Positions 5,539 through 28,655 of a stretch of 44,492 nucleotides of DNA are shown piece by piece. Made by a program: the position numbers and the translations under genes. How positions within the stretch are numbered: position 1 is the first letter of the stretch; each line of letters starts with the position of its first letter. Origin of the DNA: an uncultured Clostridia bacterium (lineage in GTDB: Bacteria; Bacillota; Clostridia; Oscillospirales; Oscillospiraceae); the NCBI GenBank assembly GCA_947306975.1, contig CAMZHU010000001.1:1-44492 (forward strand), read 5' to 3'. The notes under the pieces are model-generated. The model had not been told where the DNA came from, ran no database searches, and saw nothing but the letters and a program-made list of their open reading frames with translations.

Positions 5539-5602
5539 AACCTCACGTCCTTATAGAGATAACGGAGCGGTATCCGCTCCGTTGATACGCTACGTCCCGC
5601 CT

Positions 5603-5632
5603 ATTATAGAACAGGCGGGACGCATGTGTCAA
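5603..5632 (-). promoter_or_regulatory. Candidate promoter of the ABC exporter operon (TTGACA-18-TATAAT)
   Basis: The minus strand reads TTGACAcatgcgtcccgcctgttcTATAAT. A 10-bp leader hairpin (AACGGAGCGG-ata-CCGCTCCGTT) follows, before the RBS. Confidence 0.45.
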
Positions 5633-5652
5633 TTCATGTGTTACCTGATGTG

Positions 5653-6747
5653 TCAGACGATGAACTTCAGCGTAAGATCGCCGCTCGCGGTGTCCACGGA
5701 GATGCTGCAGCTCCCGTCGCCGTACACAAAACTGCTGCCTTTCATCATCACGGGCACTCCGCAGTCCAGGTCGCCGGAGCCCGAGTCATAATCAAGGGTA
5801 AAACCGCCGCCGGAAGGCGGAAGCGCAAGTGTAACGTTGCCGGAAGCGCCGTCGATGTCGATGTATTCCGGGAACTCCGTTAATTCAGCATAGATCTCGC
5901 CGGAAGCCGTTTCGAATTCGACCTTCTTGAATGCACCGCAGACGGATATGTCTCCGGAAGAAGTGTCTATGCTTAAGTCTCCTGCGGTGAGATCCGTTGC
6001 TCTCACGCCGCCCGAGGCTGTGTCGATATCCGCTTTCCCTGCGTACCCGGATATCTCCGCATCCCCCGAGGCGGAGTCTATATTCAGCGTACCTTCGACC
6101 TTTACGTCGGTCATAAATGCGTTGCCGGAAGCTGTGTCGACATCGAGCTCTTTAGCCGTTACGTTCAAGAGGTAGACGTCTCCGGATGCTGCGTCTGCGT
6201 CCATTTTGTCCGCCCTGATCTCCGATATGTCAATAATTCCTGACGTCGAGTCGACATCAAGGATACTCATGTTATCTGCCAGCTGCTGCGGCACGAGTAC
6301 CTCTATGGTCTTTATCGGATCCTTGCTGCCCAGCGAGATGTTGTTCCTCTTCAGGTACTGTATGCTAAGTACCCCTTTCTCGATGCCCCATCCGAGAGCA
6401 GTATCCTCGGTGATCTTCTTATCCGCTGTTTCGGTGAAAGTAATATCCTTTCCGCTGTAGGGCTTTACGATCACTTTACCGGCCAGCCAGTCGATGTCTA
6501 TACCGCTCACGCTCTCTGTTACGGTGTATTTGCCGTCAGGAGAGTATGCGTTCTTCCAGTTCTTCGATCCTCCGGGGACGCTTACTCCGATGTTTTCCAG
6601 CTTGTCCATATAATTAGTGTTTACCGCGTCTTTCCATATCTTGCTGAAGCCGCCTGGGGTAAGCGCGACAGCGACTGCGATTATAGCTATCCCTACAAGT
6701 ATGCACAGCACTGCTACCAGCAGCGTCGATCTGGATCCTTTATTCAC
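5653..6747 (-). CDS. DUF4097-family beta-helix repeat protein, membrane anchored
   Basis: N-terminal TM helix, then about 20-aa repeats each carrying D-x-ASG-D/N (DADAASGD, DVDTASGN, IDSASGD, IDTASGG, IDTSSGD, ETASGE, IDGASGN, DSGSGD, VDTASGD). The GTG start overlaps the stop of the DUF1700 gene. Confidence 0.7.
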   Translation of the reverse strand: MNKGSRSTLLVAVLCILVGIAIIAVAVALTPGGFSKIWKDAVNTNYMDKLENIGVSVPGGSKNWKNAYSPDGKYTVTESVSGIDIDWLAGKVIVKPYSGKDITFTETADKKITEDTALGWGIEKGVLSIQYLKRNNISLGSKDPIKTIEVLVPQQLADNMSILDVDSTSGIIDISEIRADKMDADAASGDVYLLNVTAKELDVDTASGNAFMTDVKVEGTLNIDSASGDAEISGYAGKADIDTASGGVRATDLTAGDLSIDTSSGDISVCGAFKKVEFETASGEIYAELTEFPEYIDIDGASGNVTLALPPSGGGFTLDYDSGSGDLDCGVPVMMKGSSFVYGDGSCSISVDTASGDLTLKFIV

Positions 6748-7343
6748 TGTACTTCCTCCCTCCTGATGAACAGGCTCTTTACCCAGCGTCCGATGCTCTT
6801 CGTAAGAAGAATTAGACCCTTAACGATGTATTTGGCCGCGATGAATGCGAGCACGCCCAGACCGATGACGGCTATTCCGCCTCCGATCAGCGCCAGCATA
6901 CCGCCCACGCTCTGCGAGAATGACAGGAACGCACCGATGATAAGGGCGATACCGGCTACTATGAGCGATATCACAACCGCGAACACGGATATGGCGATGA
7001 CGACCATAGTCACATAGATCGAGAAAGCGACGGCAAACAGCGCGATGAGTATCGACAGCCATATCGGCGAACCGATGATCGCGATCACTATAGCCAGCGG
7101 AGTCCATCCCCTGCGGGGTTTTACCTTCGTTTTTATAAGCGTGGAAAGCGGCTGCTCGCTGAGTATCTGCTCCGCGACTCCGCCTACGTCCCCGATGTGC
7201 GCGACGGCTTCATATTCTGTCATTCCGTCTTCCATCAGGTCCGAGATCATTTCATCATAGTAAGAGAGCGACTTTTCTATCTCGCTCTCGGGAAGCTGGG
7301 AAAGCCTCATTCTGAGCGCATAAAGAAACTGTTCTTTCGTCAT
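6744..7343 (-). CDS. DUF1700 (HAAS-type) membrane protein, PadR partner
   Basis: The N-terminus MTKEQFLYALRMRLSQLPESEIEKSLSYYDEMI is the typical DUF1700 start. The C-terminal half is multi-TM. The ATG at 7343 overlaps the PadR stop (ATGA). The ORF track extends it to a GTG at 7352. Confidence 0.7.
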   Translation of the reverse strand: MTKEQFLYALRMRLSQLPESEIEKSLSYYDEMISDLMEDGMTEYEAVAHIGDVGGVAEQILSEQPLSTLIKTKVKPRRGWTPLAIVIAIIGSPIWLSILIALFAVAFSIYVTMVVIAISVFAVVISLIVAGIALIIGAFLSFSQSVGGMLALIGGGIAVIGLGVLAFIAAKYIVKGLILLTKSIGRWVKSLFIRREEVQ

Positions 7344-7657
7344 GCTCTCCACCCCTCCTCGATAAAGTTGTAGATTGCCATTACCTCTGACCAGTTGTTC
7401 AGGAACTCCGGTATCCTGTCCCTGCCTTCAGGTGTTATCCTGTAGAATTTTCTCAGCCGTCCGTTATATTCGACCGAGTACACGGTGACACAGCCGGAGG
7501 CTTCCAGCCGTTTCAGGATGGGATACAGCGTTGATTCAGAAATATCTACGCAACCTGCCATATCCTTTATTATCTGGTATCCGTACGAATCCTCCCTGTT
7601 AAGGACGGACAGGACACACACCTCGAGAAGACCTCGCTTGAGCTGCGGTTCCAGCAT
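7340..7657 (-). CDS. PadR-family transcriptional regulator
   Basis: 105 aa. LLEVCVLSVLNREDSYGYQIIKDM...STLYPILKRLEASG...RKFYRITPEG is the PadR winged-helix pattern. Confidence 0.85.
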   Translation of the reverse strand: MLEPQLKRGLLEVCVLSVLNREDSYGYQIIKDMAGCVDISESTLYPILKRLEASGCVTVYSVEYNGRLRKFYRITPEGRDRIPEFLNNWSEVMAIYNFIEEGWRA

Positions 7658-7692
7658 CTGCCGACACCTCCTTATACCTGTCTTCGCGTCAT

Positions 7693-7721
7693 ACTATACT
7701 ACACGATGTATTGTGTGTCAA
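7693..7721 (-). promoter_or_regulatory. Candidate padR operon promoter (TTGACA-17-TATAGT) with embedded ACAC-N8-GTGT dyad
   Basis: The minus strand reads TTGACAcacaatacatcgtgtagTATAGT. The spacer contains the dyad ACACAATACATCGTGT (7701-7716), a plausible autoregulatory PadR operator. Confidence 0.5.
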
Positions 7722-7831
7722 GAGGTATTTTGCGTTACATTGTATTTTTTTGAGTTTTTGTTTTCCCTCAGTCAAAAACATGGTATTATAATGTTCAAGT
7801 ATTTTGTATTTCATTCGCGGGGGGATAAATA

Positions 7832-9103
7832 ATGAGTTCCAAACGGCCGGGTTTCCGGCTTTCCACGATCATCGCGTGTCTCGTCACGATGTTCTGCATC
7901 GGCATCGTGTATCTGTGGAGCGTTTTCCAGCAGCCGGTCATTGATCATTTCGGCTGGGACGTTTCCGCCGTTACGATGGTCTCTTCCTCCATCGTGTTTT
8001 TCTACGTTCTCGGAAGTCTGTTCGGCGGCATCCTGAGCGACCGGCTCAATCCCCGTATCGTTACGATCATGGGAGCCGTGCTGCTCTCTCTCGGGCTGTT
8101 CCTCACTTCGATACTCGGCTCGGCGCATTCCTGGCTGATCTATCTGACATACGGCGCGTGCTCGGGCATAGGCGTCGGATTTGCCTATTCCGCTCCCCTG
8201 AACTGCATACAGAAATGGTACCCCCACCGCCGCGGCTTCGCCACGGGCATCTCAGTATGCGCATTCGGTCTTGCTACAGTCGTTCTCGGTCCGCTGATCG
8301 AGTACTTCATCAACAGATTCGGTGTGCCCGGAGCTTTCCGGACGCTGGCTTTTACCTTCCCCGTCATCGTCATAATCGCAGGTCTGTTCATCGTCAACCC
8401 GTCCAAGGAATACCTCGACAGTCTCAATCTTCCAGTCGCCCAGGCGAACCAGCGCCAGTACACGACGAAAGAGGCTCTCAAGACCCTCGAGTTCTGGAGC
8501 CTTGCTCTCTCTGAACTGTTCCTGCCCGCAGCATACATGATGATAATCCCACGTATCAAGACGCTCGGACTCCTTCGCGACCTCACTCCTGCGATGACCA
8601 CCATAACGGTATCACTTACCGGCATCGCCAGCGCCGTCAGCCGTCTTGTTGCAGCTTCCGCATCAGATAAACTCGGCAGAGCCTGGACGATATGGTCTCT
8701 CGCCGCCGTCATGCTGGTAGCGTCGGTCCTCATGGTCTTTGCCCGTGGCTGGCTCTACATCGTTGCTGTACTTCTCATCGTCTGCGGTTATTCCGGACCT
8801 GCAGGTATCTATCCCGCCATGTGTACTGATGCTTTCGGGACCAAGTATTCAGGTGCGAACTACGGGTGCTGCTTCATGTTCCTGGGCGTGTCGGCGCCTC
8901 TGTTTACTTTCCTTTCCACCCGCATCAGCGCCAGCGGCGCGGAGACCGGCAACTATACGGCGTCCTTTATCGTGGCCGCAGCAGGCTGCATAGTCCCGCT
9001 CATAATGCTGCCTCTGTACAACGTTGCGCGAAGGAGGCACGCTCCACGCGACGAGGCCATGATGGCTGCCGCGGCATCTGAAGAAACATCCTCAGAAGGA
9101 TGA
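7832..9103 (+). CDS. MFS transporter, oxalate/formate antiporter (OFA)-like
   Basis: 423 aa with about 12 TM helices. The N-terminus (RLSTIIACLVTMFCIGIVYLWSVFQQPVIDHFGW) is typical of OFA / L-lactate-type MFS carriers. Confidence 0.75.
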   Translation: MSSKRPGFRLSTIIACLVTMFCIGIVYLWSVFQQPVIDHFGWDVSAVTMVSSSIVFFYVLGSLFGGILSDRLNPRIVTIMGAVLLSLGLFLTSILGSAHSWLIYLTYGACSGIGVGFAYSAPLNCIQKWYPHRRGFATGISVCAFGLATVVLGPLIEYFINRFGVPGAFRTLAFTFPVIVIIAGLFIVNPSKEYLDSLNLPVAQANQRQYTTKEALKTLEFWSLALSELFLPAAYMMIIPRIKTLGLLRDLTPAMTTITVSLTGIASAVSRLVAASASDKLGRAWTIWSLAAVMLVASVLMVFARGWLYIVAVLLIVCGYSGPAGIYPAMCTDAFGTKYSGANYGCCFMFLGVSAPLFTFLSTRISASGAETGNYTASFIVAAAGCIVPLIMLPLYNVARRRHAPRDEAMMAAAASEETSSEG

Positions 9104-9178: not shown

Positions 9179-9209
9179 TTGACTTTGGTACTGTACCAGA
9201 CTTTATAAT
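9179..9209 (+). promoter_or_regulatory. Candidate promoter of the fused mutase gene (TTGACT, 19-nt spacer, TATAAT) with palindrome GGTACTGTACC
   Basis: TTGACTttggtactgtaccagacttTATAAT. The spacer is longer than optimal. A perfect 5+1+5 palindrome lies at 9187-9197. Confidence 0.35.
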
Positions 9210-9266
9210 TATATTAATAATGAGCAGCCGCGTATAACAAACTCTTTTAACGGAGGTCCGCAGCAC

Positions 9267-11195
9267 ATGATTAAAGTCAGGAATGAAAAGATCGACGAAG
9301 CGGTATTCATGAAGATGCGCGAAAAAGAGCTATCCGCGTGGCCGACCGGCCGTGAGGTGGATCTTGATGAAGCGATCGAATATCAGAAATCCCTCCCCCC
9401 GACGAAAAACTACGGATATGTCCTTCAGCAGTACAAAAAGGACGGCAAGTGCGGACTGAGCCCCCGCTCCGGCGTCCCTGTAGTCGAGGAAGAGATAAAG
9501 CTCCTCCACGGGCTGTATGACGCCGGCGTGCGTCTCTTCCCTTTCACGACCGACTCATACACGCGAAACCGGCAGTTTGAGAGGGCGCAGAAGGGGCTCG
9601 AGGAGAGCATACGCACTGGTCAGAAAAAGCTCAACGGCTATCCGATAATCAACCACGGCGTAAAGGTGACCCGTAAAGTCGTTGAATCAGTAGACGGAGC
9701 GTTCGACCCCCGCTGCTCCAAAGGCGCGAACAACTTCGTTGCGGAGATCGCGTTTGCCTCCGGCATGACCGCTATGCCTCACAGTTTCTTCGGCTGGCTC
9801 GCCGGCTATGACAAGCTTGCGACCCCTGAGGAATGCGTCACCGACATCCAGTATATGGGACGTCTCGTCGGCTATTATCAGGAACACGGCGTGACTCTGT
9901 CCACTGACCTGCACGGATGGATCCCCAACGGCGTCATACCCATGTATGTGAATATAGCCACGCAGATCATAGAGGGCATCGTCGCCTCTACCCAGGGCGT
10001 CCGGTCCCTGATGCCTCTCGTCAACTTCCAGGGCAACCTTGCACAGGACCTCGGCGAGTTCAAAGCGATAGAGCGCATGTACGACAAGTATCTCAAACAG
10101 GCCGGATTCCCGGATACGGTGGTTGCCGGCATGATCGGCCAGCAGTCTCCGCTCTTCGCATTCCCTCAGGACGTAGGCCGCGCGTTCGGATATATAAACT
10201 ATGTCGCGATGGCTGCTTCTCTTGCGAAACTGCCAGCATGCTCCGTCAAGACTATCGACGAAGCGACCGGCGTTCCCAGTCTGGAGTCACATATGCAGAC
10301 TTACCGCAGCGCGAACTGGATCTTCGACGTCATGAGCGAACAGAAGTTCGAGTTCGACTCGAAACAGGTCGATATCGAGCAGGAAATGGCTGAAAAAGCA
10401 GTCTCTGCGATCATCGACAAAGTCTATGAAATGGGCGACGGCGACATATGCGTCGGTGTCGTCAAGGCCGTCGAGGCCGGCGTTCTTGACAGCCCGTTCT
10501 CAATAAACGTCAACGTCCGCGACCTGTGCCTCGGTGCGCGCGATCTGTACGGCGCCTGCCGTTATATCGATTTCGGCAATCTGCCGATCCCCGATGAAGT
10601 CAGGAAATTCCACATGGAAAAGATCCACGAGCGCGAAAAGGCAGAGGGCACAAAGATCGACTACAAATCCTCTCTTGCCGACTTCTGGTCTCTCAGCCGC
10701 GGCATGCTCTGCGGAAAGACCGAGAAGAGCGAATACGAGGGAGCGATCGACAGCTTCCACCCTGCGATTGCAGAGAAGAAGCCCACTATAATCACCGGAA
10801 CCTCAGGCATAGACAGCCATGTCATCGGGACAAAGATCATATCCCGTGAACTCCGTGACAACGGGTTCAATGTAGTCGCTCTTGGCGCTCAGACTCCTCC
10901 GGAGGAGTTCATCAAGGCGGCCCAAGAGACAAACGCCAGCGCCATACTTATCACATCTCTCTACGGAATGGCGGAGATGGATCTACAGGGCTTCCGTGAC
11001 AAGTGCATCGAGGCAGGAGTGGGAGATATCCTGCTCTACATCGGCGGTATCCTGGGCGTCGGCATCCACGACTTTGAGGACGACGTAAAGACCTTTAAGA
11101 AGATCGGATTCGACCGTGTCTATCCGCCCGAGGCAGACGTCAAGAAATCAGTGCTCGACCTCTGCGGCGATCTTCGCGAGAGGGGCATCATCTGA
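9267..11195 (+). CDS. Fused glutamate-mutase-like adenosylcobalamin enzyme (GlmE/MutE-like TIM-barrel domain + GlmS/MutS-like B12-binding domain)
   Basis: Residues 1-~485 align by eye to clostridial GlmE (ELSAWPTGREVDLDEAIEY vs VLQQWPTGKEVDLQEAVDY; QYMGRLVGYYQEHGV vs QYCDRLVGFYEEQGV). Residues ~505-642 align closely to GlmS (GIDSHVIGTKI = DxHxxG; GFNVVALGAQTPPEEFIKAAQETNASAILITSLYG...LLYIGG...GFDRVYPP). Confidence 0.8.
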   Translation: MIKVRNEKIDEAVFMKMREKELSAWPTGREVDLDEAIEYQKSLPPTKNYGYVLQQYKKDGKCGLSPRSGVPVVEEEIKLLHGLYDAGVRLFPFTTDSYTRNRQFERAQKGLEESIRTGQKKLNGYPIINHGVKVTRKVVESVDGAFDPRCSKGANNFVAEIAFASGMTAMPHSFFGWLAGYDKLATPEECVTDIQYMGRLVGYYQEHGVTLSTDLHGWIPNGVIPMYVNIATQIIEGIVASTQGVRSLMPLVNFQGNLAQDLGEFKAIERMYDKYLKQAGFPDTVVAGMIGQQSPLFAFPQDVGRAFGYINYVAMAASLAKLPACSVKTIDEATGVPSLESHMQTYRSANWIFDVMSEQKFEFDSKQVDIEQEMAEKAVSAIIDKVYEMGDGDICVGVVKAVEAGVLDSPFSINVNVRDLCLGARDLYGACRYIDFGNLPIPDEVRKFHMEKIHEREKAEGTKIDYKSSLADFWSLSRGMLCGKTEKSEYEGAIDSFHPAIAEKKPTIITGTSGIDSHVIGTKIISRELRDNGFNVVALGAQTPPEEFIKAAQETNASAILITSLYGMAEMDLQGFRDKCIEAGVGDILLYIGGILGVGIHDFEDDVKTFKKIGFDRVYPPEADVKKSVLDLCGDLRERGII

Positions 11196-11220: not shown

Positions 11221-11248
11221 GCCGCCGGCATACTGCCGGCGGCTTTTC
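11221..11248 (+). terminator. Rho-independent terminator after the mutase gene
   Basis: GCCGCCGGC-atact-GCCGGCGGC followed by TTTT. Confidence 0.65.
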
Positions 11249-11262
11249 GCGTCCCGTGTTTG

Positions 11263-13708: not shown

Positions 13709-15286
13709 TCACTTCATCCCGAGCCGCTCTTTCGCAATAGCGCGCAGACGGCGTCTGTCGACCTTTCCGGTCGCATTCAGTGGCAGCCGGTCAAAGAACA
13801 GTACATATCGCGGGACCTTATAGGCGCTCAAGCGCCCGCGTACTATAGATTGGACATCTTCCGCATCCATTTCAGTGCCCTCGTTCAGGACGACACATGC
13901 GCACGCTTCCTCCATATAGTGCGTGTCAGGTACATCGATGATCTTGACACGGGCAATACGGCTGTCGGAGAGAAGCAGGTTTTCTATCTCCTCGGGAGAT
14001 ATGTTTTCACCTCCGCGTATGATGAGGTCCTTTATCCTGCCGCGGTAATAGAGATTCCCCTGCGGATCCGCCTTCGCCAGATCACCGGTACGTATCCATC
14101 CGTCAGCGCTCTTTACCCGAGCCGTCTCAGCCGGCATTTTGTAGTATCCGATCATACCGTTGAACCCTCGGAAGTATATCTCCCCCACGATCCCGGGCGG
14201 CACCGGGTTTCCGCCGCGTGATCTCACTGAGACCTCGACCATCGGAAATGCCCTGCCCAGGCTCTCGCTGCGCAGTTCAAGACTGTCGTTAACTGAACCG
14301 CAGGTTATGCCTCCTGTAGCCTCGGTCTGGCCGAGCGAAGGCAAGAGCGTATAACCGAGTTCATCACAGATCCGGCGGAAGAACTCGGGCGGATATGAAG
14401 ATCCGCCGATAAGTCCGGTGCGCAGAGAAGAAATGTCCGCGTTCATCTCCTTCTGCCTTCGGAGCAGTGCTGAGAAAAGTGTAGGAACGGCGTTCAAAAC
14501 GGTACATTTCTCACGCTCGATCATCTCCAGGATGATGTCAGTCCGCCTCCCTGCCGGGAAGCAGAGACATGCGCCTGCCGCCAGCGCCGCAAGAGCGGTA
14601 CCGGTAATCGAAAAGCAATGGAAAAGCGGCAGTACCGAACAAAACCGGTCGTTCTCGTCAGCATCCAGGCCGGCGGCCTGCGCAAATATGGTGTTGACTC
14701 TCGCAAAATGCGTTGTGATCACAGGACGTGCGCTGCCGGTAGAGCCTGATGAAAACAGTATCGTATCAGGATCGTCTTCCGTTACGGAACTCTCTGCCTC
14801 TTCGAGCTCCGCGGGCGCTGCCATAGGCAGATCGAACAGATACCGATACTTGTATCCCGGTTCCTGCTGAAGAGTAAATATCCTGTCAGCGTCGGGCTGT
14901 TCCAGTGAAACGCACAGTTCCGGAAAAACATTCTCCCTGAACTCGTGGTCGATCACCATGTAACCGACATCGGCAGATCTCACGCAGCCGCGAAGCTCCT
15001 CCACGCCGAACGCAGTGCAGATAGGTACGACGACCGCACCGATCCGCCAGAGCGCATAGAAGCATATAAGTGTCTCAGGCGCGTCGTTCGCAAGAACGCC
15101 TACGTGTACGCCCTTGCGTATACCTGCTGCAAGAAAACGCCTCGCGTACTGACCGCTTGTCTCAAGAAGCTCGCTGTAGGTAAGTCTCAGCGTATCGGAA
15201 ACAACAGCTTCCCGTTCCGGAAAACGCTGCGTCTGCATATGAAGCACCTGTCCTATTGATTTGTGAAAGAGTTTAGGCGCCGTCAT
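13709..15286 (-). CDS. AMP-forming acyl-CoA synthetase (class I adenylate-forming enzyme)
   Basis: Motifs LFSSGSTGSARPV, LGQTEATG, GWIRTGDLA, GRIKDLIIRGGENISPEEIE and NATGKVDRRRL. I prefer the ATG at 15286 (MTAPKLFHKS, GGAAAGG upstream). The ORF track extends it to 15340. Confidence 0.85.
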   Translation of the reverse strand: MTAPKLFHKSIGQVLHMQTQRFPEREAVVSDTLRLTYSELLETSGQYARRFLAAGIRKGVHVGVLANDAPETLICFYALWRIGAVVVPICTAFGVEELRGCVRSADVGYMVIDHEFRENVFPELCVSLEQPDADRIFTLQQEPGYKYRYLFDLPMAAPAELEEAESSVTEDDPDTILFSSGSTGSARPVITTHFARVNTIFAQAAGLDADENDRFCSVLPLFHCFSITGTALAALAAGACLCFPAGRRTDIILEMIEREKCTVLNAVPTLFSALLRRQKEMNADISSLRTGLIGGSSYPPEFFRRICDELGYTLLPSLGQTEATGGITCGSVNDSLELRSESLGRAFPMVEVSVRSRGGNPVPPGIVGEIYFRGFNGMIGYYKMPAETARVKSADGWIRTGDLAKADPQGNLYYRGRIKDLIIRGGENISPEEIENLLLSDSRIARVKIIDVPDTHYMEEACACVVLNEGTEMDAEDVQSIVRGRLSAYKVPRYVLFFDRLPLNATGKVDRRRLRAIAKERLGMK

Positions 15287-15468
15287 GACTGTCTGCCTTT
15301 CCAGTCCGCGGTAATGCTGCGGACAAATAAACGGACCCATCCGAGAGAGTTACTTCTAAAGTCACTCCCGTCAGCAGGATCCTCCACGAAAAGAACACAT
15401 CCGATACCGCGGTTTTTTATGTCCGCGGCGGGCGGAGACGTTCCCCCGCCCGCTCAGCGGACCGTTCT

Positions 15469-17094
15469 TTATTTATCGATATACGCTCCGAGGCCGCCCC
15501 ACTTTTCGTGGAAGATGCCCTCGTCCATCGTCTTGAGTTCGGGAGAGATCACAGGCTCAAATCCGATCCTGTCAAGAACATCCTTCTGGAGGTCTATGCC
15601 GGGCGCTATCTCAACAAGGGTCATCTTATGATCTATGAGACGGAAAACTGCGCGCTCAGTGACATAGAGGACTTCCTGATCCTCCGGAGTGTACTGGCCG
15701 GCAAACGTGATCTGACCGACTTTCTCCACAAACTTCTGTATCGTGCCTTCCTCGACTATCTCAAGCTTGCCGTCGCCGACTTTCAGTTTTGCCTTGCCCA
15801 TGAGCGTGCCGGCAAAAATGACTTTCGGGGTAGCGCGGGTGATATCGATGAATCCGCCGGGGCCGGTAAGCCTCTTGCCCATACGGCTGACGTTGTTGTT
15901 GCCGTCGCCGTCGGCTTCGCCGATGCCCAGGCATGTCAGGCTGAGGCCGCCGCCGCTTATAAGATCGAACATCTCGTTCTGTGTGATAATGGCCTCGGGA
16001 TTGTATGCGCTGCCGAAGCTCGGAAGCGCGGATGGTACGCCGCCCACCATTCCGCTCTCGGTGCTCATGACGACGTCATTGATGAAGCCTTCCTCCGCGA
16101 CGACCTTTGCCACGTCAGCCGGCATGCCGACGCCGAGGTTCACGAGGTCGCCTTTCTTGAGCTCCATCGCGACGCGGCGGCAGATGACCTTTCTCTCGTC
16201 AAACGGCAGCGGCTCGATGCTGTCGAGCGGGATGCGGATATGTCCAGAGTAAGAGGGCTCCCAGTATGTTCCCTCTGCCTGCCAGCACGATTTGGGATCC
16301 TTCGCCACTACGACGTAGTCGACGAGCACTCCGGGTATCTTTATATCCTTGGGATTGAGGGTCTCTTTCTTCGCGACGTATTCGACCTGTACTATAACGA
16401 TGCCTCCGCTGTTCTTGACCGCGGTCGCGACGGAGAAGCCCTCGTTAATAACGCTCTCATGAGCAAAAGAGATATTGCCGTTCTCATCGGCTATGGTACC
16501 TCTCAGGAGAGCAACGTCAGCCTTGAAAGAAGGATAGAACAGATACTCTTCGCCGTTGAACTCGACGAGTTTTACCAGTTCGTCCTTGGCGCATGCATTC
16601 ATACGGCCGCCTTCTACGCGCGGATCGACGAAAGTTCCGAGGCCCGTCTTCGTTATAAGTCCGGGACGGCCCGCGGCGATCTCACGCCAGAGATTGATGA
16701 TCACGCCCTGCGGGAGACAGTATGACTCGACCTGTTCCTTGCGTGCCAGGTCGCACATGGCGAATGCGCTGCCTATATGTGCGCTTGTCCATTTCGTCAC
16801 GAGGCCGGGTCCGGCTTCGCCGAAGCGGGATACGCCGCGGACGCCGTGATCGTTGTCGGGCTCTGGAAGTCTTGAACGCTCCCATCCGTCAAACTGGTTG
16901 CCATAGCCCCAGTCGCCCATGGCGCTGCCCTGCTTGAGGTTGAGATTGCACGGATGTCCGGTCTCGCGGAAGTTGTCTCTTATCGCGCAGGCAAGCTCTT
17001 CAGCCCAGCCTGAAAGGCCCATTCCGGCAAGACCAACTGTCGCTCCGTCCGGAATGAGGGCAGCCGCTTCTCTTGCTGTAATGAATTTTGCCAT
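15469..17094 (-). CDS. Acyl-CoA:carboxylate CoA-transferase, propionate CoA-transferase (Pct) family
   Basis: 541 aa, colinear by eye with C. propionicum Pct (GLITKTGLGTFVDPR, NSGGIVIVQVE, VLVDYVVV, TESGMVGGVP containing the catalytic Glu, GGFIDIT). Confidence 0.85.
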   Translation of the reverse strand: MAKFITAREAAALIPDGATVGLAGMGLSGWAEELACAIRDNFRETGHPCNLNLKQGSAMGDWGYGNQFDGWERSRLPEPDNDHGVRGVSRFGEAGPGLVTKWTSAHIGSAFAMCDLARKEQVESYCLPQGVIINLWREIAAGRPGLITKTGLGTFVDPRVEGGRMNACAKDELVKLVEFNGEEYLFYPSFKADVALLRGTIADENGNISFAHESVINEGFSVATAVKNSGGIVIVQVEYVAKKETLNPKDIKIPGVLVDYVVVAKDPKSCWQAEGTYWEPSYSGHIRIPLDSIEPLPFDERKVICRRVAMELKKGDLVNLGVGMPADVAKVVAEEGFINDVVMSTESGMVGGVPSALPSFGSAYNPEAIITQNEMFDLISGGGLSLTCLGIGEADGDGNNNVSRMGKRLTGPGGFIDITRATPKVIFAGTLMGKAKLKVGDGKLEIVEEGTIQKFVEKVGQITFAGQYTPEDQEVLYVTERAVFRLIDHKMTLVEIAPGIDLQKDVLDRIGFEPVISPELKTMDEGIFHEKWGGLGAYIDK

Positions 17095-17978: not shown

Positions 17979-20015
17979 TTACAGGAGTTTCCCCCTGGCG
18001 CAGGCTGTCACGTCAGCGCCTATACGCGCAAGCCCGAAATCGGTGTCAAAGTCCTTTTTCTTGACCTCTACGGTCACGGTCACTTCACCCTTTGCGCCGC
18101 AGCGTTCAGCTTTCTTTGCTGCCCGCTCCTTAGCGATAACGGTAGCACGCCTGATCGCCATATCCAGATCGTCGAAAGCTTCTCTGTTTTCTCCGGATAT
18201 GAAGAAAATACCGTCATTCTCATCCGCTTTGGGCGTGATATAGTCGGCCTTAATATGCACGGTCTCGTACACGCATACGTTTCCGAGCACAGCGCCCAGT
18301 GCATTGGATACTCCTGAGTATTCAGAAACCCGCCATTCGGTATGAAGGGCTCTGGCCACATCGGGCAGGAATATATGTATAGGCGCGCCTGCGCCGAGAA
18401 GAACAGCGTCCGTTGAGAAGGTGTTCCTGAAAAAGCGCGTTTTCTCTTCGGATATCTCCTCTGCAAACGCCTGTTTGGCAAGTGTTTCTAGTTCCTTTGG
18501 CGCATAAGGCGACCGCTCCGTACCGTATGCGTCGCTCCAAAGCATCCTTACTATCTTACAGTACAGTTTTTCCTTAATCTGCCTGTATACCTCGTCGATA
18601 ATCCACTCCTGCTCCCTGCCGGTGGATCTGCTTATGAAACCAAGCGCAAGGCTCGCTGCGCGCTCGGCTGATCCGGATATCAGCTTTCCGTAGGCTCCGC
18701 ACGTCATATCACGAGCGTCGCCCCTGAGTATAAAAGCGTCTGTCGGCGTAAAACCGCAGCGCAGCACAGCTCCCAACTGTTCAAGACGTTCCGTACGCAC
18801 ACTGTATCTGTTAGTACCGATAGCACGCGCAAGCTGCAGCACGCTTTTCGGCCCTTCCCTCAGCGCTTCGCAGATCCTTCGGTCATCCTCTGAAAAACGT
18901 CTGTCTCCGTCGTCTATCTCTTTAAGCAGCAAGAAATGCTCGTAGAGAGCGACGGAACAGCCGTCATACCATTCCTCGGTGCTCTCAAGCTCCGGGAGCA
19001 CCTCCGGAAAACGGCTGGCAAGTATCGATACCGGCATGACGCGCCTGCTGTCGAGCGAAATTGAACGCCGGCTGTACCAAACGCGGCTGTCTCCGCCCAG
19101 GGCAAGAGTCTCGATGCTCACCCCGCGTACGAAGGTCTGCCATCCGGCCAGGCGTATCCCGTTCGCGTCGATCTTAGGACTGCCGTTTTTGATGATCGCC
19201 ATATCGCTCGTCGTGCCGCCCATGTCGATCACGACCGCCTGGCGTTCGCCGAAAAGTTCACCCGCTCCTTTAACGCTCGCAGTAGGCCCGCATACGAGGG
19301 TCTCTACAGGATAGCTGAGCGTGTATTCCTCGCTCACGAGTGAGCCGTCGCTCCGCATTATAAGTATCGGAAGGTTTATACCATCCTCTTCGAGGACGGC
19401 ATGGATGGCATCGAAAAACTCGGCTATGACCTTCGACATGCGCGCGTTCAGCAGCGCGCCTGCGCCGCGTTTTATAACGTTTACTTCCCTGAATATCTCA
19501 TATGAACACGTCACCGGGATGTCGGAAAAAGCAGCTATGCGCTCTGCGGCCTGCCGCTCGTAGAGCCCGTCGTTGGTCCTCGCACCGATCTGAGCCACTG
19601 CGATACCGTCGTAGTGCTTTGTGATGCTCGGCAGCATCCCGTCGAGCGCGGCCCAATCCGGTTCGATCCCCTTATCGGGATCTCCGTCGATAAAGCGCAT
19701 GAATTCCATGCCCTCAAAACCGTATGAGGACAGCGTCCACTCAACGGCAGCCTTGCTGGCGCCTATAAAGAGGAGGCAGATGTTCTCGCCTTTCTTTTCC
19801 ACGCAGGCGTTCGTGGCCAAAGTCGTCGATAACGAGATATATGAAGCCCCGTCTATAAGATCTCTCGGGAGCTGACGCAGGACCTCCCGTATTCCGATCT
19901 CAAGATCCTCATGGGTGGTCATCGCCTTCGCGTATGTCAGTATCCTGTGGTCTTCAAGGTCGTAGACGACAGCATCAGTCGAAGTGCTGCCTGTGTCTAT
20001 GCCGATTGCCGTCAT
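17979..20015 (-). CDS. Hydantoinase/oxoprolinase A (HyuA)-like ASKHA ATPase, solitary (no HyuB partner)
   Basis: 678 aa. ASKHA phosphate motifs IGIDTGSTSTDAV and VVIDMGGTTSDMA are present, and the length and architecture match HyuA-type subunits. There is no Cys cluster. The start lies 14 nt after the folC stop. Confidence 0.7.
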   Translation of the reverse strand: MTAIGIDTGSTSTDAVVYDLEDHRILTYAKAMTTHEDLEIGIREVLRQLPRDLIDGASYISLSTTLATNACVEKKGENICLLFIGASKAAVEWTLSSYGFEGMEFMRFIDGDPDKGIEPDWAALDGMLPSITKHYDGIAVAQIGARTNDGLYERQAAERIAAFSDIPVTCSYEIFREVNVIKRGAGALLNARMSKVIAEFFDAIHAVLEEDGINLPILIMRSDGSLVSEEYTLSYPVETLVCGPTASVKGAGELFGERQAVVIDMGGTTSDMAIIKNGSPKIDANGIRLAGWQTFVRGVSIETLALGGDSRVWYSRRSISLDSRRVMPVSILASRFPEVLPELESTEEWYDGCSVALYEHFLLLKEIDDGDRRFSEDDRRICEALREGPKSVLQLARAIGTNRYSVRTERLEQLGAVLRCGFTPTDAFILRGDARDMTCGAYGKLISGSAERAASLALGFISRSTGREQEWIIDEVYRQIKEKLYCKIVRMLWSDAYGTERSPYAPKELETLAKQAFAEEISEEKTRFFRNTFSTDAVLLGAGAPIHIFLPDVARALHTEWRVSEYSGVSNALGAVLGNVCVYETVHIKADYITPKADENDGIFFISGENREAFDDLDMAIRRATVIAKERAAKKAERCGAKGEVTVTVEVKKKDFDTDFGLARIGADVTACARGKLL

Positions 20016-20029
20016 TTGGTGCGCTCTCC

Positions 20030-21865
20030 TTATACTTGGTCATCAAACCTGTATACAGTCTCTTCTGTTACAACAGTTCCCGGCTTCACATCAGTGATCT
20101 CGCATGATGTCCTGTCGAGGTGCTGGGCCTCGAACGCCACACATACCGTCACTGCAGACGGGCATCTGACAAGGTAACGGTCATAGTATCCGCATCCGTG
20201 GCCGAGCCGGCCTCCGAAACCGTCGAATCCGACGCAAGGGACTATAACGGCGTCTATCTCTTCCGGAGGGATCAAATCGGAGCGTTCCTTCATCGGAGAC
20301 TTTATCCCGTACGCGCCCGTCACCCAGGCGTTCTCGTCACGAGGGATCATCGCTTCCATTTCTCCCCCGTCGCCGGTAACCGGATAGGCTATCCTTGCCC
20401 CGTTCCGGGCCGCATACCTGTCGAATCCGCCAACGTCCGCCTCTCCGCGGACCGCACAGTACGAGAGGATGGTCCTTGCCCCCTTGAGTTCCGGCATTTC
20501 CTCAAGCCTTTCACATATGCGTGCGCTGTACTCGCTGCGCTGTTCTTCTGTAAGCGCCAGACGGGCCGCGCTGCAGTTTTTTCTCTGCAGCTTTTTCAGC
20601 TTTCCCGGAAAAACGCTGCGCACGTGACCGGCCATATAAAGTGAGCCGAATGAGACGACCGGCACGCCGGTCTCCCCTGCCAGTTCGAGCGCTCTCTCTA
20701 CGCCGTCTTCTATGCTCTCGCAAGCTTCTGCCTCTGCTCCCCGTGATACTAGATACTTCGCAAGGTCGCCGCTTATGAGCCTGCGGGGACTGTCAGGGGT
20801 AACGCATACGAATCTGTCTGCGTAAGGCAGCATCAGGGACATTATGGTCTCATAATCCTTGTCCGCCAGAACGCCTGTGAGAAATATGACTTTTTTATCC
20901 GGCAGGAGCATGTCGAGGCTCTTCGTCAATGCCTCCGCGCACTGCGGGTTGTGTCCGCCGTCCAGGATAAACAGCGGATCACGGCTCAGCACTTCCATAC
21001 GCGCCGGCCACTGGACAGTGCGAAGTCCTTCATCAACAGCCATCTCGGGTATATCCCAGCCACGGTCACGCAGCGCCTCAGTTCCGGTCAGCACCAGTGC
21101 AGCGTTATGAAGCTGGTGCGGTCCCAAAAGAGAAAGCGAATACTCTCTGCCGTCCCATCTGAAACGCTGTCCGTCAAGGGTGTACCCAAGCGGCTCGAGC
21201 CGCGAGAAATCTACGCAGTACAGCGGGACTTCCATATCGGCGCAAACGCTTTTTACGACTTCGGTCACTTCGGGAGCCCCGTCGTAGCATACGCATGAAC
21301 AGCCGTTCTTGATGATCCCGGCTTTTGTGGAGGCGATCTCTTCTAGCGTGTTGCCGAGGTATTCGGTGTGCTCCAGACCAATATTCGTTATTACGGCAAG
21401 TTCAGGCGCGTCTATCGCGTTGGTCGAATCAAGTGCTCCGCCCATGCCAACCTCAAGGACGACGGCGTCGCAGTGTTCTTCACAGAAATACTGCATGGCT
21501 ATGGCCGTAACAAGTTCAAACTGACTGGGGTGATCCTCCATATGTTCGGCGATATTCATGACGCGCTCCGTAAGCTCCGCCAGCCTTCCGCCCGGTATAT
21601 CCCTGCCGTCTATCCTGATCCTCTCATTGAAGACCTGGATATACGGGGATGTATAGAGTCCGGTCCTGTAACCGGCCGCTCGAAGGATGGCGTCGAACAT
21701 GGCGCAGGAACTGCCTTTCCCGTTGCTCCCGGCAACGTGGATAAACTTCAACCTCTTCTGGGGATCCCCCAGCTGCGCAAGCAGTTCCTTTGTCCGTCCC
21801 AGCCCTAGACGGGTCGTGCTCCAGCCGTAATTCTCTATATAGGAAATCGCTTCCTGCTCAGTCAT
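20030..21865 (-). CDS. folC: Folylpolyglutamate synthase/dihydrofolate synthase fused to 5-formyltetrahydrofolate cyclo-ligase
   Basis: The N-terminal ~425 aa are FolC/Mur-ligase like (HVAGSNGKGS, ITNIGLEHTEYLG, DGGHNP). The C-terminal ~180 aa are MTHFS like (ILSYCAVRGEAD..., VPCVGFDGFGGRLGHGCGYYDRYL). The start overlaps the folT stop (ATGA). Confidence 0.85.
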   Translation of the reverse strand: MTEQEAISYIENYGWSTTRLGLGRTKELLAQLGDPQKRLKFIHVAGSNGKGSSCAMFDAILRAAGYRTGLYTSPYIQVFNERIRIDGRDIPGGRLAELTERVMNIAEHMEDHPSQFELVTAIAMQYFCEEHCDAVVLEVGMGGALDSTNAIDAPELAVITNIGLEHTEYLGNTLEEIASTKAGIIKNGCSCVCYDGAPEVTEVVKSVCADMEVPLYCVDFSRLEPLGYTLDGQRFRWDGREYSLSLLGPHQLHNAALVLTGTEALRDRGWDIPEMAVDEGLRTVQWPARMEVLSRDPLFILDGGHNPQCAEALTKSLDMLLPDKKVIFLTGVLADKDYETIMSLMLPYADRFVCVTPDSPRRLISGDLAKYLVSRGAEAEACESIEDGVERALELAGETGVPVVSFGSLYMAGHVRSVFPGKLKKLQRKNCSAARLALTEEQRSEYSARICERLEEMPELKGARTILSYCAVRGEADVGGFDRYAARNGARIAYPVTGDGGEMEAMIPRDENAWVTGAYGIKSPMKERSDLIPPEEIDAVIVPCVGFDGFGGRLGHGCGYYDRYLVRCPSAVTVCVAFEAQHLDRTSCEITDVKPGTVVTEETVYRFDDQV

Positions 21866-22377
21866 GTATGCGCTCTCTTTCCGATCTCGTGGATCACTTT
21901 AACGATTATGGGTATGAATATGAGCTGTACAGCCGTAAGTATGCCGGTCTGCGGCAGTCGCCCGACAAGCGTCGGCACATACGGCATCCCGTACAGCACT
22001 TTGAGCCAGTATGTGTTGAGTATCAGGCTCAGCACCCACTGCTGGATCACGACAGCGATCACTATGCGGACCATCGTCTGTTTATCGTGCAGCAACGAGC
22101 CGTAAAGCAGGCCCGTCAAAGCCGCTGTCACGGTGAAGCCTGGAAAATACGGTCCCACCGGGAAAATGAACGCGCCCAGTATATCGGCGAGTATCCCGAT
22201 GATCATTGCCGGGACAGGACCGAACATTACGCCCGCTATTACTATGGGGATGAAGTCAAGGCTGAGCTTGATCGTCTGAGTCGGTCTGAACGTTACAAAA
22301 TGCGCTATTACTACTTCGAGCGCTATAAGAACGCCCATTACTGCCAGCATCTTCGTACTGATTTTCTGCCTGTTCAT
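21862..22377 (-). CDS. folT: Folate ECF-transporter substrate-capture (S) component
   Basis: 171 aa from the ATG at 22377 (MNRQKISTKMLAVMGVLIALE...), with about 6 TM helices. AGGAG lies 8 nt upstream and a THF riboswitch precedes the gene. The ORF-track extension to 22554 runs through the riboswitch and is not coding. Confidence 0.8.
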   Translation of the reverse strand: MNRQKISTKMLAVMGVLIALEVVIAHFVTFRPTQTIKLSLDFIPIVIAGVMFGPVPAMIIGILADILGAFIFPVGPYFPGFTVTAALTGLLYGSLLHDKQTMVRIVIAVVIQQWVLSLILNTYWLKVLYGMPYVPTLVGRLPQTGILTAVQLIFIPIIVKVIHEIGKRAHT

Positions 22378-22380
22378 AGA

Positions 22381-22592
22381 AAAAACTCCTTTCGCGGCAG
22401 TAGCCACAAAAGGAGTTTTATCCGACGCTTTACCTCGTTCCCTCCCCGATCGGGCGGGAAACGGGTTTTCGCGAGGTATGTCCACCTTTAGTGGCAGCGG
22501 ATGCGGCTCCGGCACCGCAACGCGATGCGTTTTCGTCCAACGGCAACTTCCCATCCGCTGACACTTGACGCGCCGGAACCTACTCTACCTCT
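22381..22592 (-). promoter_or_regulatory. THF-I riboswitch (aptamer ~22493-22589) plus expression platform with an RBS-sequestering terminator hairpin (22381-22420)
   Basis: The minus strand reads GGUAGAGUAGGUUCCGGCGCGUCAAGUGUCAGCGGAUGGGAAGUUGCCGUUGGACGAAAACGCAUCGCGUUGCGGUGCCGGAGCCGCAUCCGCUGCC. It shares the conserved blocks AGAGUAG, GCGUnAAGUGU, AUGGGAnGU, ACGAA and GCAUCCGCU with the E. siraeum THF aptamer as I recall it. P1 (GGUAG/CUGCC) and P2 (GUUCCGGC/GCCGGAGC) can pair. Downstream, AAAACUCCUUU-N16-AAAGGAGUUUUUU ends 3 nt before the AUG. Confidence 0.85.
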
Positions 22593-22616
22593 TAATTGTC
22601 TTTCTTCGTGCGGTCT

Positions 22617-24088: not shown

Positions 24089-24172
24089 CTTAGCACCTCT
24101 CTATAGTACTTGCATAAAACGACACACGCCTCCGGACCGGATAGGTCCGGAGGACATGTTCATGTTAATAAG

Positions 24173-25171: not shown

Positions 25172-25190
25172 TTCTGTGTACCCCCTTCCC

Positions 25191-25994: not shown

Positions 25995-26117
25995 ATCGAT
26001 CCATCCTTCCTGTTTGTTATTGTCCGGTACGCCAGCCCCTCTGTACTGGACCGGGCCGGTCTATATGCCCGCGCCCGGCAGCAGCAACTGCGCCGGGTGC
26101 GGATAAGAGTCATTAGA

Positions 26118-26909: not shown

Positions 26910-26954
26910 ACTGTATGTACACTCCTTAATATAGTGGGATGTTGTATATAAGGC

Positions 26955-28631: not shown

Positions 28632-28655
28632 TTATATATCCTCCAGAATTCCTGC

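Follow-up and report, generated by a model that had tools for sequence, protein, structure and literature searches.

The gene at positions 9267-11195 of the window (the whole analysed stretch, 44,492 nucleotides from an uncultured bacterium of the Oscillospiraceae) probably encodes a functional, single-chain, adenosylcobalamin (AdoCbl)-dependent carbon-skeleton mutase of the glutamate mutase (GlmES) type, and the substrate of the clade to which it belongs is probably a free dicarboxylate that lacks the 2-amino group. Based on comparisons of sequences and on a predicted structure, we put the probability of this reading at roughly 0.65. As far as we know, very few specificities of AdoCbl-dependent carbon-skeleton mutases have been described, and only two of these enzymes, glutamate mutase and 2-methyleneglutarate mutase, act on free acids instead of CoA esters. 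The features of the locus are:

7832-9103, + strand: MFS carboxylate carrier (SfMCT/OFA-like), upstream of the mutase gene (NCBIfam and PDB matches)
9179-9209, + strand: promoter-like TTGACT (9179-9184) and TATAAT (9204-9209), conserved in orthologous contigs
9252-9256, + strand: ribosome-binding site GGAGG, conserved in orthologous contigs
9267-11195, + strand: gene for the fused GlmE-GlmS-like AdoCbl mutase, 642 amino acids (ATG start; Pfam, NCBIfam, and phmmer matches; dN/dS)
9267-10718, + strand: GlmE-like TIM-barrel catalytic domain, residues 1-484 (PF06368, 455 bits; Foldseek match to 6H9E_B)
9768-9815, + strand: pocket segment TAMPHSFFGWLAGYDK, residues 168-183, equivalent to TSNEGGGISYNVPYAK of GlmE (E171P, Y177W, Y181 kept, N172H)
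10719-10781, + strand: interdomain linker, residues 485-505 (alignments; secondary structure of the model)
10782-11192, + strand: GlmS-like Rossmann B12-binding domain, residues 506-642 (NF002612; superposition on 1I9C_A)
10812-10829, + strand: DSHVIG, residues 516-521, the DxHxxG motif of base-off/His-on cobalamin binding (D516, H518, and G521 are invariant)
11221-11249, + strand: intrinsic-terminator-like hairpin GCCGCCGGC-atact-GCCGGCGGC followed by TTTTCG, GC-rich, 3' of the stop codon

A preliminary description, made from this DNA alone, had recognized a 642-residue GlmE-GlmS fusion with the motif DSHVIG, and Pfam, NCBIfam, phmmer, and an AlphaFold2 model all agree. Met_asp_mut_E (PF06368) spans residues 43-484 and the B12-binding domain begins at residue 507 (Pfam). 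In NCBIfam, the mutase passes the cutoffs for two GlmS equivalogs (171.5 versus 110 for NF002612 and 144 versus 135.8 for TIGR01501) and narrowly misses the cutoff for the GlmE equivalog (370.5 versus 390.1 for TIGR01503). Using phmmer against PDB, residues 3-486 align to residues 2-483 of GlmE from Clostridium cochlearium (6H9E_B; E = 3e-92). The AlphaFold2 model is confident over its full length (pLDDT 88.3, pTM 0.89). Foldseek superposes it on GlmE (6H9E_B; 34% identity) with a target-normalised TM score of 0.96 and an rmsd of 1.6 Å across 486 columns; for GlmS (1I9C_A; 48% identity), the TM score is 0.92 and the rmsd 1.3 Å. The linker varies in both length and sequence across the alignments of family members.

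The two-domain fold is shared with GlmES from C. cochlearium (PDB 1CCW/1I9C/6H9E; EC 5.4.99.1), and so are the DxHxxG mode of His-on binding, the residues R66, R100, R149, T94, Y181, K326, and E330 (GlmE numbering), and, in relatives of the window mutase, a GlmL-type partner. The features of class I (His-on) AdoCbl mutases that we compared are present: the DxHxxG motif, a Rossmann B12 domain on a TIM barrel, and K326/E330, which we take to be adenosyl-site residues. GlmES is an epsilon2-sigma2 heterotetramer, whereas the window mutase is one polypeptide.

What sets the window mutase apart is its substrate pocket. In GlmE, R66, R149, and E171 grip the glycyl fragment, with E171 hydrogen-bonded to the amine, while R100 and Y177 hold the acrylate and Y181 touches the methylene radical (PMC10947579). 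The alignment has no gaps through the pocket, so TSNEGGGISYNVPYAK of GlmE corresponds to TAMPHSFFGWLAGYDK of the window mutase. When we re-derived the GlmE numbering, we reproduced the positions that the preliminary description had given (R66/R100/R149/E171/Y177/Y181). Its reading of the pocket also holds in the gap-free phmmer alignment, which the superposed model supports: the three arginines (R66 is R67 in the window mutase) and Y181 are retained, E171 is replaced by proline, and Y177 is replaced by tryptophan. Besides W177, the window mutase has H172-S173-F174, D147, and C150 where GlmE has G172-G173-G174, Q147, and H150.

Among the 120 closest homologs, all have P171 and W177, and 117 have Y181. 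The arginine claw (R66/R100/R149) is unchanged in 120/120, and T94, K326, and E330 are likewise invariant. Compared to GlmES, this P171/W177 family shows E171P, Y177W, Q147D, H150S/C, N170M, G172N/H, G173S, G174F, I175F, and A182D. The aspartate at position 147, which lies on the same strand as R149, is invariant in the family, and the asparagine at position 172 becomes histidine only in the clade of the window mutase. The loss of the amine contact, with the arginine claw intact, is a strictly conserved signature of the family.

An ordinary fused glutamate mutase in which an acid at a new position (D147 or D182) binds the amine would account for the database names, which are uniformly "methylaspartate mutase" for the closest homologs and their clusters. 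It would also account for the identity to GlmE and GlmS, the near-identical fold, and the GlmL equivalogs that adjoin relatives, and Q147D and A182D do put extra acids near the pocket. But E171, G172, G173, Y177, Q147, and H150 are all altered in the window mutase, while all six are conserved in the canonical-pocket representatives that we compared, which include natural fusions in both domain orders. The score for the GlmE equivalog is under the cutoff, and we found neither methylaspartase nor mesaconase in the 44 kb of the window or around the mutase in the 80 related loci that we compared. We consider this explanation very unlikely.

The natural fusions with canonical pockets join E and S in one chain, either in the order E-S (our sequences P0229 and P0255) or S-E (P0183, P0185, and many more). 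They keep the glutamate signature, R-Q/T-R-Q-R-H...E171-G-G...Y177...Y181, and are just 27-32% identical to the window mutase. The P171/W177 signature also appears in 54 sequences from our scan of genomes, including unfused forms from Actinomycetota. These sequences are monophyletic in a neighbor-joining tree (bootstrap for the clade, 59/100), and the window mutase branches basal to the remaining fused members. The preliminary description had asked whether fused members without E171 form a clade of their own. There is one clade, but fusion is not its mark: the clade includes unfused members, and a canonical glutamate pocket also occurs in fused proteins.

The clade spans many anaerobe phyla. 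The scan places it in no fewer than 54 species-level genomes, from Oscillospiraceae/Sporobacter, Family XIII, Peptococcaceae, Desulfobacteraceae, Acidobacteriota, and Actinomycetota. This is a large, uncharacterised family under the label "methylaspartate mutase", in which the radical machinery and the dicarboxylate claw are intact and the specificity pocket is rebuilt. One carrier, Sporobacter termitidis DSM 10068, is in culture, so the question of function is directly testable.

Other GlmE-like proteins depart from the canonical pocket in other ways. A fusion from Tepidanaerobacter (P0271) and CoA-transferase-linked forms from Dehalococcoidales and Acidobacteriota are also annotated as methylaspartate mutase, and they too have the arginine claw or a variant of it, with E171 missing or the pocket altered. 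Both their pocket signatures (for instance, N171/K149 or A-A-G-K-S...E177) and their contexts (an ICL-family lyase with TctABC, or CoA-transferases with enoyl-CoA hydratase) differ from those of the P171/W177 clade. A profile of the other non-canonical E-S fusions retrieved only Tepidanaerobacter-type relatives. The GlmE-like superfamily holds many further pocket types without an assigned function, so glutamate fermentation inferred from such annotations is unreliable.

To describe the gene neighborhoods, we took from 296 species-genome relatives the best 80, which share 45% identity or more with the window mutase, and we counted genes within 9 kb on each side of the mutase. GlmL adjoins the mutase in 42 of these 80 loci (the equivalog scores 545.8, versus a cutoff of 475). 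Short-chain dehydrogenases (SDR) occur in 43 loci, a glycyl-radical enzyme (GRE) in 29, its activase in 28, CoA-transferase III in 26, MmgE/PrpD in 24, OYE-type enoate reductase in 19, AFOR in 17, and Fe-ADH in 14; no further family recurs. Zn-ADH genes and a fumarate-reductase-type flavoprotein are also among the neighbors. In S. termitidis, the operon runs PucR - Fe-ADH - GRE - activase - mutase - GlmL. Genes for methylaspartase, mesaconase, or citramalate lyase do not recur in the 80 loci, a further difference from GlmES.

We considered whether the partner GRE might be a diol or hydroxyproline-type dehydratase, and rejected this because the loop with the cysteine lacks the glutamate of the CXE motif. 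Our literature searches found nothing on a pathway that joins a GRE to a GlmE-like mutase, nothing on GlmE-like enzymes with other substrates, and no mentions in omics studies of Sporobacter or Papillibacter. The association with GRE and with aldehyde and alcohol enzymes is explained by none of the specific substrate proposals.

Taken together, the loss of the amine contact in 120/120 homologs, the intact arginine claw, the monophyly of the clade, and the lack of methylaspartate-pathway genes in the 80 loci make a dicarboxylate without a 2-amino group the best reading, as the preliminary description had proposed. Its further claim, that this would be a new specificity for a carbon-skeleton mutase, went too far: 2-methyleneglutarate mutase is a known AdoCbl enzyme for a diacid that lacks the amino group. 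This enzyme, Mgm from Eubacterium barkeri (EC 5.4.99.4), is a single-chain mutase with a C-terminal B12 domain, and it acts on a free dicarboxylate; it is the sole precedent that we know of. Mgm is homomeric (PMC6257451). The window mutase is like Mgm, as described, in its single-chain architecture.

Members of the clade could be isofunctional with Mgm, in which case the label "methylaspartate mutase" hides an enzyme with a known reaction; this is a sub-case of the reading that we prefer. The 2-methyleneglutarate reaction would suit a pocket that is hydrophobic and a context that includes ene-reductases. The dicarboxylate claw is kept, and the M-P-x-S-F-F-G-W wall would suit an exo-methylene group. 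Relatives adjoin OYE-type enoate reductases, the fumarate-reductase-type flavoprotein, and dehydratase-type MmgE/PrpD, all of which are from families that act on unsaturated or branched diacids. But the partners of Mgm in the nicotinate pathway (Mii, DmdAB, and Dml) are missing beside clade members. Specifically, the recurrent neighbors in the 80 loci include neither 3-methylitaconate isomerase (PrpF family) nor dimethylmaleate hydratase, and neither dimethylmalate lyase nor a nicotinate-hydroxylase set; these genes were not found in the window either. The partners are instead GRE, aldehyde and alcohol oxidoreductases, enoate reductase, and PrpD-family genes. Also, E. barkeri is not in the best 80 of the 296 species-genome relatives, and none of the 120 closest proteins carries the name of 2-methyleneglutarate mutase. 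The N-terminal part of Mgm reportedly has little similarity to GlmE, while the window mutase is 34% identical to it. Isofunctionality with Mgm is possible, with the odds against it. A rearrangement of the 2-methyleneglutarate/(R)-3-methylitaconate type, or of a close unsaturated or branched analogue, is nevertheless our leading single candidate, and a tentative one. If this is the reaction, then what seemed a "microbial curiosity" is widespread and is used beyond nicotinate fermentation.

The preliminary description had itself suggested 2-hydroxy- or 2-oxo-diacids, which would make the enzyme a 2-hydroxyglutarate/3-methylmalate or 2-oxoglutarate/3-methyloxaloacetate mutase whose migrating fragment bears OH or =O in place of NH3+. 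Beside P171, the conserved polar residues D147, S173, and N172 (histidine in the window mutase) could hydrogen-bond to an oxygen substituent, genes for SDR, Fe-ADH, and Zn-ADH are numerous near relatives, and glutamate mutase itself rearranges L-2-hydroxyglutarate slowly. Overall, however, the pocket is more hydrophobic (M170, P171, F174, F175, W177), and neither a 2-hydroxyacid dehydrogenase nor a malate-type lyase recurs in the 80 loci. The context expected for such chemistry is seen in a different fused clade (Tepidanaerobacter, our locus L008). We think that this group of substrates is unlikely; the 2-hydroxyglutarate/3-methylmalate pair, the next single candidate after the 2-methyleneglutarate type, is more doubtful still.

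At somewhat below even odds, the P171/W177 clade rearranges some dicarboxylate other than glutamate and 2-methyleneglutarate, mostly within an undescribed anaerobic pathway of GRE and aldehyde/alcohol oxidoreductases. If so, the GlmE-type B12 mutases of free acids would have a third substrate class, and the partner GRE, without the CXE motif, would belong to a new class. A new substrate would add a reaction to B12 enzymology, and it would add a pathway to the anaerobic carbon metabolism of rumen, termite-gut, and digester communities.

For a non-amino dicarboxylate, we predict the following mechanism, by homology with GlmES. Cobalamin would be bound base-off/His-on via H518, and substrate binding would set off homolysis of the Co-C bond. 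The 5'-deoxyadenosyl radical would then take a hydrogen atom from a substrate held by the arginine claw, with R67 and R149 on one carboxylate and R100 on the second. A 1,2-shift of a carboxyl-bearing two-carbon fragment would interconvert a linear and a methyl-branched diacid, after which the hydrogen would be returned. The glycyl-amine pocket of GlmE, N170-E171-G-G-G-I-S-Y177, is swapped for M-P-[N/H]-S-F-F-G-W, which is bulkier and largely hydrophobic and should suit a substituent such as =CH2, or possibly OH or =O. Most relatives would act from an operon with a GlmL-type chaperone, often with the unclassified GRE and with alcohol/aldehyde and C=C oxidoreductases, while the lineage of the window mutase may have retained the mutase alone, as a monocistronic gene.

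Indeed, no methylaspartase, mesaconase, citramalate lyase, GlmL, or GRE is encoded anywhere in the 44-kb window, which extends the earlier observation that the first two and GlmL are not nearby. The term "orphan" is apt for the small clade of the window mutase, but not for its relatives, which usually have GlmL and often GRE operon genes. Without GlmL and the usual partners, the physiological role of the window mutase may differ from that of its clustered relatives. We also considered whether a 678-residue hydantoinase-like protein (17979-20015) might be a distant GlmL, and rejected it because it belongs to the hydantoinase_A family and its weak match to MutL is confined to residues 6-54.

The mutase gene had been described as having its own promoter-like element and terminator, and both are borne out. 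In two orthologous contigs, the promoter-like TTGACT/TATAAT block and the ribosome-binding site are preserved amid intergenic DNA that has otherwise diverged. (A palindrome inside the block, TGGTACtGTACCA at 9186-9198, is perfect in the window only.) The hairpin itself, at 11221-11243, is GC-rich and is followed by TTTT; because the run of T is only 4 long, a consensus terminator scan overlooked it. With a conserved promoter-like block and its own terminator-like hairpin, the gene appears to be monocistronic.

A solitary gene might also be a decaying or non-catalytic paralog, such as a B12-binding regulator, left after the loss of an operon. The lack of GlmL, GRE, or any usual partner within 44 kb, the basal position relative to other fused members, and N172H would fit. 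However, dN/dS is 0.038 at dS of 1.2 in the comparison with a 93%-identical ortholog; synonymous sites are saturated, and there are no substitutions in the pocket. The gene is under strong purifying selection, and the catalytic, cofactor, and pocket residues are all intact. Given also that promoter, ribosome-binding site, and terminator are conserved, and that the model is confident throughout, decay is highly improbable.

The MFS carrier immediately upstream had been taken as a hint of a diacid substrate, but it is a weak one. Its best match is SfMCT, an L-lactate/monocarboxylate transporter (279 bits in NCBIfam; 130 bits for PDB 6G9X), and OxlT/OFA comes second. The adjacency of carrier and mutase is restricted to relatives that are at least 92% identical, the mutase has its separate conserved promoter, and in one ortholog there is a terminator between the two genes. 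The carrier is probably a separate transcript. Rfam shows no riboswitch upstream of the mutase; its matches in the window are a THF riboswitch and one tRNA, both away from the mutase.

The fused mutase gene is intact and has its own transcription signals:

9179-9184 (TTGACT) and 9204-9209 (TATAAT): promoter-like elements, upstream of the mutase gene
9267-11195, forward strand: fused mutase ORF, 642 amino acids, ATG start, GGAGG 9 nt upstream
Protein residues 516-521: DSHVIG, the DxHxxG His-on motif
11221-11243: GC-rich hairpin followed by TTTT, past the mutase stop codon

In Pfam, residues 43-484 match Met_asp_mut_E (455 bits) and the B12-binding domain starts at residue 507. The C-terminal part scores above both of the GlmS equivalog cutoffs in NCBIfam, and the N-terminal part falls slightly short of the GlmE equivalog (TIGR01503; 370.5 bits, cutoff 390.1), which explains why public records label relatives as "methylaspartate mutase subunit S". 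Using phmmer against PDB, residues 3-486 align to residues 2-483 of Clostridium cochlearium GlmE (E = 3e-92). The pocket is gap-free, with TSNEGGGISYNVPYAK in the window protein and TAMPHSFFGWLAGYDK in GlmE. In the re-derived GlmE numbering, R66, R100, R149, and Y181 are kept, E171 is proline, and Y177 is tryptophan. An AlphaFold2 model (pLDDT 88.3, pTM 0.89) superimposes closely on GlmE (6H9E_B; target-normalised TM 0.96, rmsd 1.6 Å, 486 columns) and on GlmS (1I9C_A; TM 0.92, rmsd 1.3 Å, 48% identity), so predicted structure and sequence both support these equivalences. The preliminary description had reported a fused GlmE-GlmS-type mutase with E171 replaced, from a by-eye alignment of the pocket; Pfam, phmmer, and the superposition all bear this out.

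Of the GlmE pocket residues, R66 and R149 bind the migrating glycyl fragment through its carboxylate, and E171 forms a hydrogen bond to the amine of that fragment; R100 and Y177 bind the acrylate fragment, and Y181 is in contact with the methylene radical (PMC10947579). The changed part of the window protein is exactly the wall around the migrating fragment's substituent: N-E-G-G-G-I-S-Y becomes M-P-[N/H]-S-F-F-G-W, a bulkier, mostly hydrophobic stretch. The cobalamin ligand motif, the whole arginine claw, Y181, and K326 and E330 (adenosyl-site residues) are kept, which suggests the same radical cycle as in GlmE. Co-C homolysis would open the cycle, hydrogen would be abstracted from a substrate bearing two carboxylates, a carboxyl-bearing fragment would undergo a 1,2-shift, and hydrogen return would close the cycle. 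The protein resembles GlmES in its likely mode of working but departs from it where specificity is defined: at E171, at Y177, in the equivalog score relative to its cutoff, and in pathway context.

The best 120 database homologues are all ~640-aa fusions (62-100% identity). R66, T94, R100, R149, K326, and E330 are invariant among them, as are P171, W177, S173, F175, and D182. Y181 is present in 117/120, and Asp147, located on the R149 strand and probably facing into the barrel, in 119/120. This family is one cluster among 1.84 billion 50%-identity cluster representatives; its next relatives reach no more than 44% identity. Only some representative clusters carry the canonical glutamate signature (R66, R100, Q147, R149, H150, E171, G172, G173, Y177, Y181), and most others have unrelated pockets. 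The full canonical pocket occurs in natural single-chain proteins of both domain orders (P0229, P0255, P0183, P0185, and others; ~583-602 aa for E-S and ~620-680 aa for S-E), so fusion by itself is uninformative about specificity.

A scan of species-representative genomes gave 296 relatives, and we analysed the best 80. P171/W177 is found in 54 of these, from Sporobacter/Papillibacter/Oscillospiraceae, Family XIII, Peptococcaceae, Syntrophomonas, Desulfobacteraceae, Spirochaetes, Acidobacteriota, and Actinomycetota. The preliminary description had raised the question of whether fused proteins lacking E171 form their own clade. By neighbour-joining, our only phylogenetic method, P171/W177 sequences do form a single clade (modest bootstrap, 59/100), but it includes the Actinomycetota forms, whose E is unfused. 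The window protein and a 93%-identical twin are the basal sister to the remaining fused members and deviate from the consensus pocket solely at N172H and I178L. Among named relatives, the nearest to this pair comes from a water-buffalo rumen Oscillospiraceae MAG (L054), with 92% identity and the same PrmA synteny.

Relatives at 47-53% identity (L055-L079 and L083; Dehalococcoidales, Acidobacteriota, and Desulfobacteraceae MAGs) keep R66, T94, R100, R149, and Y181. Their pockets fall into at least four other types, one with E171 still present, and their flanking genes encode type III and type I CoA-transferases, enoyl-CoA hydratase, and GlmL. Such variety suggests that GlmE-like mutases radiated onto several further substrates. 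Tepidanaerobacter syntrophicus encodes a different E-S fusion (L008:8001-10862; 33% identity; R66/T94/R100/K149/H150/N171/W177/Y181) directly upstream of an ICL/PEP-mutase-family lyase, with TctABC, Ldh_2, 2-hydroxyacid dehydrogenase, and RraA-like genes nearby; this locus looks like another uncharacterised mutase pathway.

The gene had been described as an orphan. This holds for the 44-kb window, where we found no methylaspartase, mesaconase, citramalate lyase, GlmL, or glycyl-radical enzyme (GRE), and where the mutase lacks every usual partner, but not for the family. At four loci that we inspected (three on MAG chromosomes or contigs, one in Sporobacter termitidis DSM 10068), a divergent PucR-type regulator is followed by one or two Fe-ADHs, an 840-aa GRE, its activase, the fused mutase, and GlmL (equivalog 545.8, cutoff 475). 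The GRE lies just upstream of the mutase in many relatives, including:

L003 (S. termitidis), 6060-8582: 840-aa GRE
L001 (related genome), 6413-8926: 840-aa GRE
L006 (related genome), 5602-8121: 840-aa GRE

We clustered all ORFs within 9 kb of the mutase at 80 loci, without preselecting families (all context views span at most 10 kb per side). The recurrent neighbours were SDR (43 loci), GlmL (42), GRE (29), activase (28), type III CoA-transferase (26), and the MmgE/PrpD family (24), followed by OYE-type enoate reductase (19), aldehyde:ferredoxin oxidoreductase (17), Fe-ADH (14), enoyl-CoA hydratase (12), and family I CoA-transferase (10). The other, small clusters were regulators, transporters, more AFORs, Zn-ADH, and a fumarate-reductase-type flavoprotein. 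Neither methylaspartate-pathway nor nicotinate/dimethylmalate-pathway genes recurred in these intervals.

The partner GRE has a normal Gly loop (RVGGY), and its Cys loop (SGC-L-G) lacks the CXE glutamate, which all GRE eliminases and isomerases keep (PMC13450708). Since it also passed no NCBIfam equivalog, it appears to be an unclassified GRE type. It is paired with a B12 mutase at every locus where we noted it. Our literature search found no publication on the Pro171/Trp177 clade or on a GRE and B12-mutase operon.

The bulkier hydrophobic wall argues against an ammonium group and for =CH2, with OH or =O less probable; we infer a diacid without a 2-amino group. The enoate reductases, PrpD-type enzyme, and CoA-transferases of the neighbourhoods fit unsaturated or branched diacids. 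Given the wall and these neighbours, our best single guess is 2-methyleneglutarate/3-methylitaconate-type chemistry (probability about 0.3). The next candidate, 2-hydroxyglutarate/3-methylmalate, seems rather unlikely; glutamate mutase slowly turns over 2-hydroxyglutarate. A substantial share of the probability falls to some diacid not yet anticipated, linked with the GRE and aldehyde enzymes.

To our knowledge, the 2-methyleneglutarate mutase (Mgm) of Eubacterium barkeri is the sole known enzyme for such a substrate. We compared it with the family by names, genome scan, and neighbours. E. barkeri is not among the best 80 of the 296 genome relatives, no homologue found bears the Mgm name, and no Mii, Dmd, or Dml neighbours were found around family members, which argues indirectly against simple orthology. 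The Mgm reaction itself is still compatible with the family, at the same tentative level. The proposal of a mutase for a non-amino diacid gains partial support from the kept claw, the replaced E171 and Y177, and the wall, while its novelty is lessened because a known reaction fits.

The adjacent MFS carrier had also been taken to point to a diacid, but this clue is weak. Its best match is the L-lactate transporter SfMCT (NCBIfam 279 bits; PDB 6G9X 130 bits), above OxlT (94 bits); we have documented the two genes side by side only in relatives with at least 92% identity; and each gene appears to have its own transcript. Two orthologous contigs (93% protein identity, dS ~1.2) share the promoter block and RBS with the window, whereas their other intergenic DNA has diverged; in one of them, a clean terminator separates the MFS gene from the mutase promoter. 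With the 3' hairpin, these signals indicate a monocistronic gene, as first suspected. A perfect palindrome (TGGTACtGTACCA, 9186-9198) between the -35 and -10 is degenerate in both orthologous contigs (TGGTATAGTTCCA), so an operator role is uncertain.

Could the window copy be a relic? Its dN/dS against the ortholog is 0.038 (dS near-saturated), all 46 amino-acid differences lie outside the pocket, and the copy has an intact promoter, RBS, and terminator, all of which indicate a maintained enzyme.

The window's other genes are housekeeping (PrmA, tRNA, MnmE, PPDK, transketolase), transporters, CoA-ligase and CoA-transferase genes, and a folate/C1 block:

20030-29459, reverse strand: folate/C1 block, including an FPGS-like ligase fused to 5-formyl-THF cyclo-ligase
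22493-22589, reverse strand: THF riboswitch (88 bits), preceding an ECF S component gene

The block also encodes FolD, an FTCD_C cyclodeaminase-type protein, EtfAB, an MTHFR-like protein, formate-THF ligase, and a pterin-binding methyltransferase, a gene set compatible with an O-demethylating or acetogen-like Oscillospiraceae lifestyle. A 678-aa protein (17979-20015, reverse strand) matches the MutL (GlmL) family weakly over its first ~50 residues; it belongs to the hydantoinase_A/oxoprolinase family rather than being a GlmL orthologue. The unfused Actinomycetota mutases (L080-L088) also have hydantoinase A/B and acetone-carboxylase-like genes beside them. An acyl-CoA synthetase and a FadX-like family I CoA-transferase (13709-17094, reverse strand) lie 2.5-6 kb downstream of the mutase, on the opposite strand; with homologues of the two genes near the mutase in a few relatives (L054 and L055; L058), a functional link is a weak possibility.
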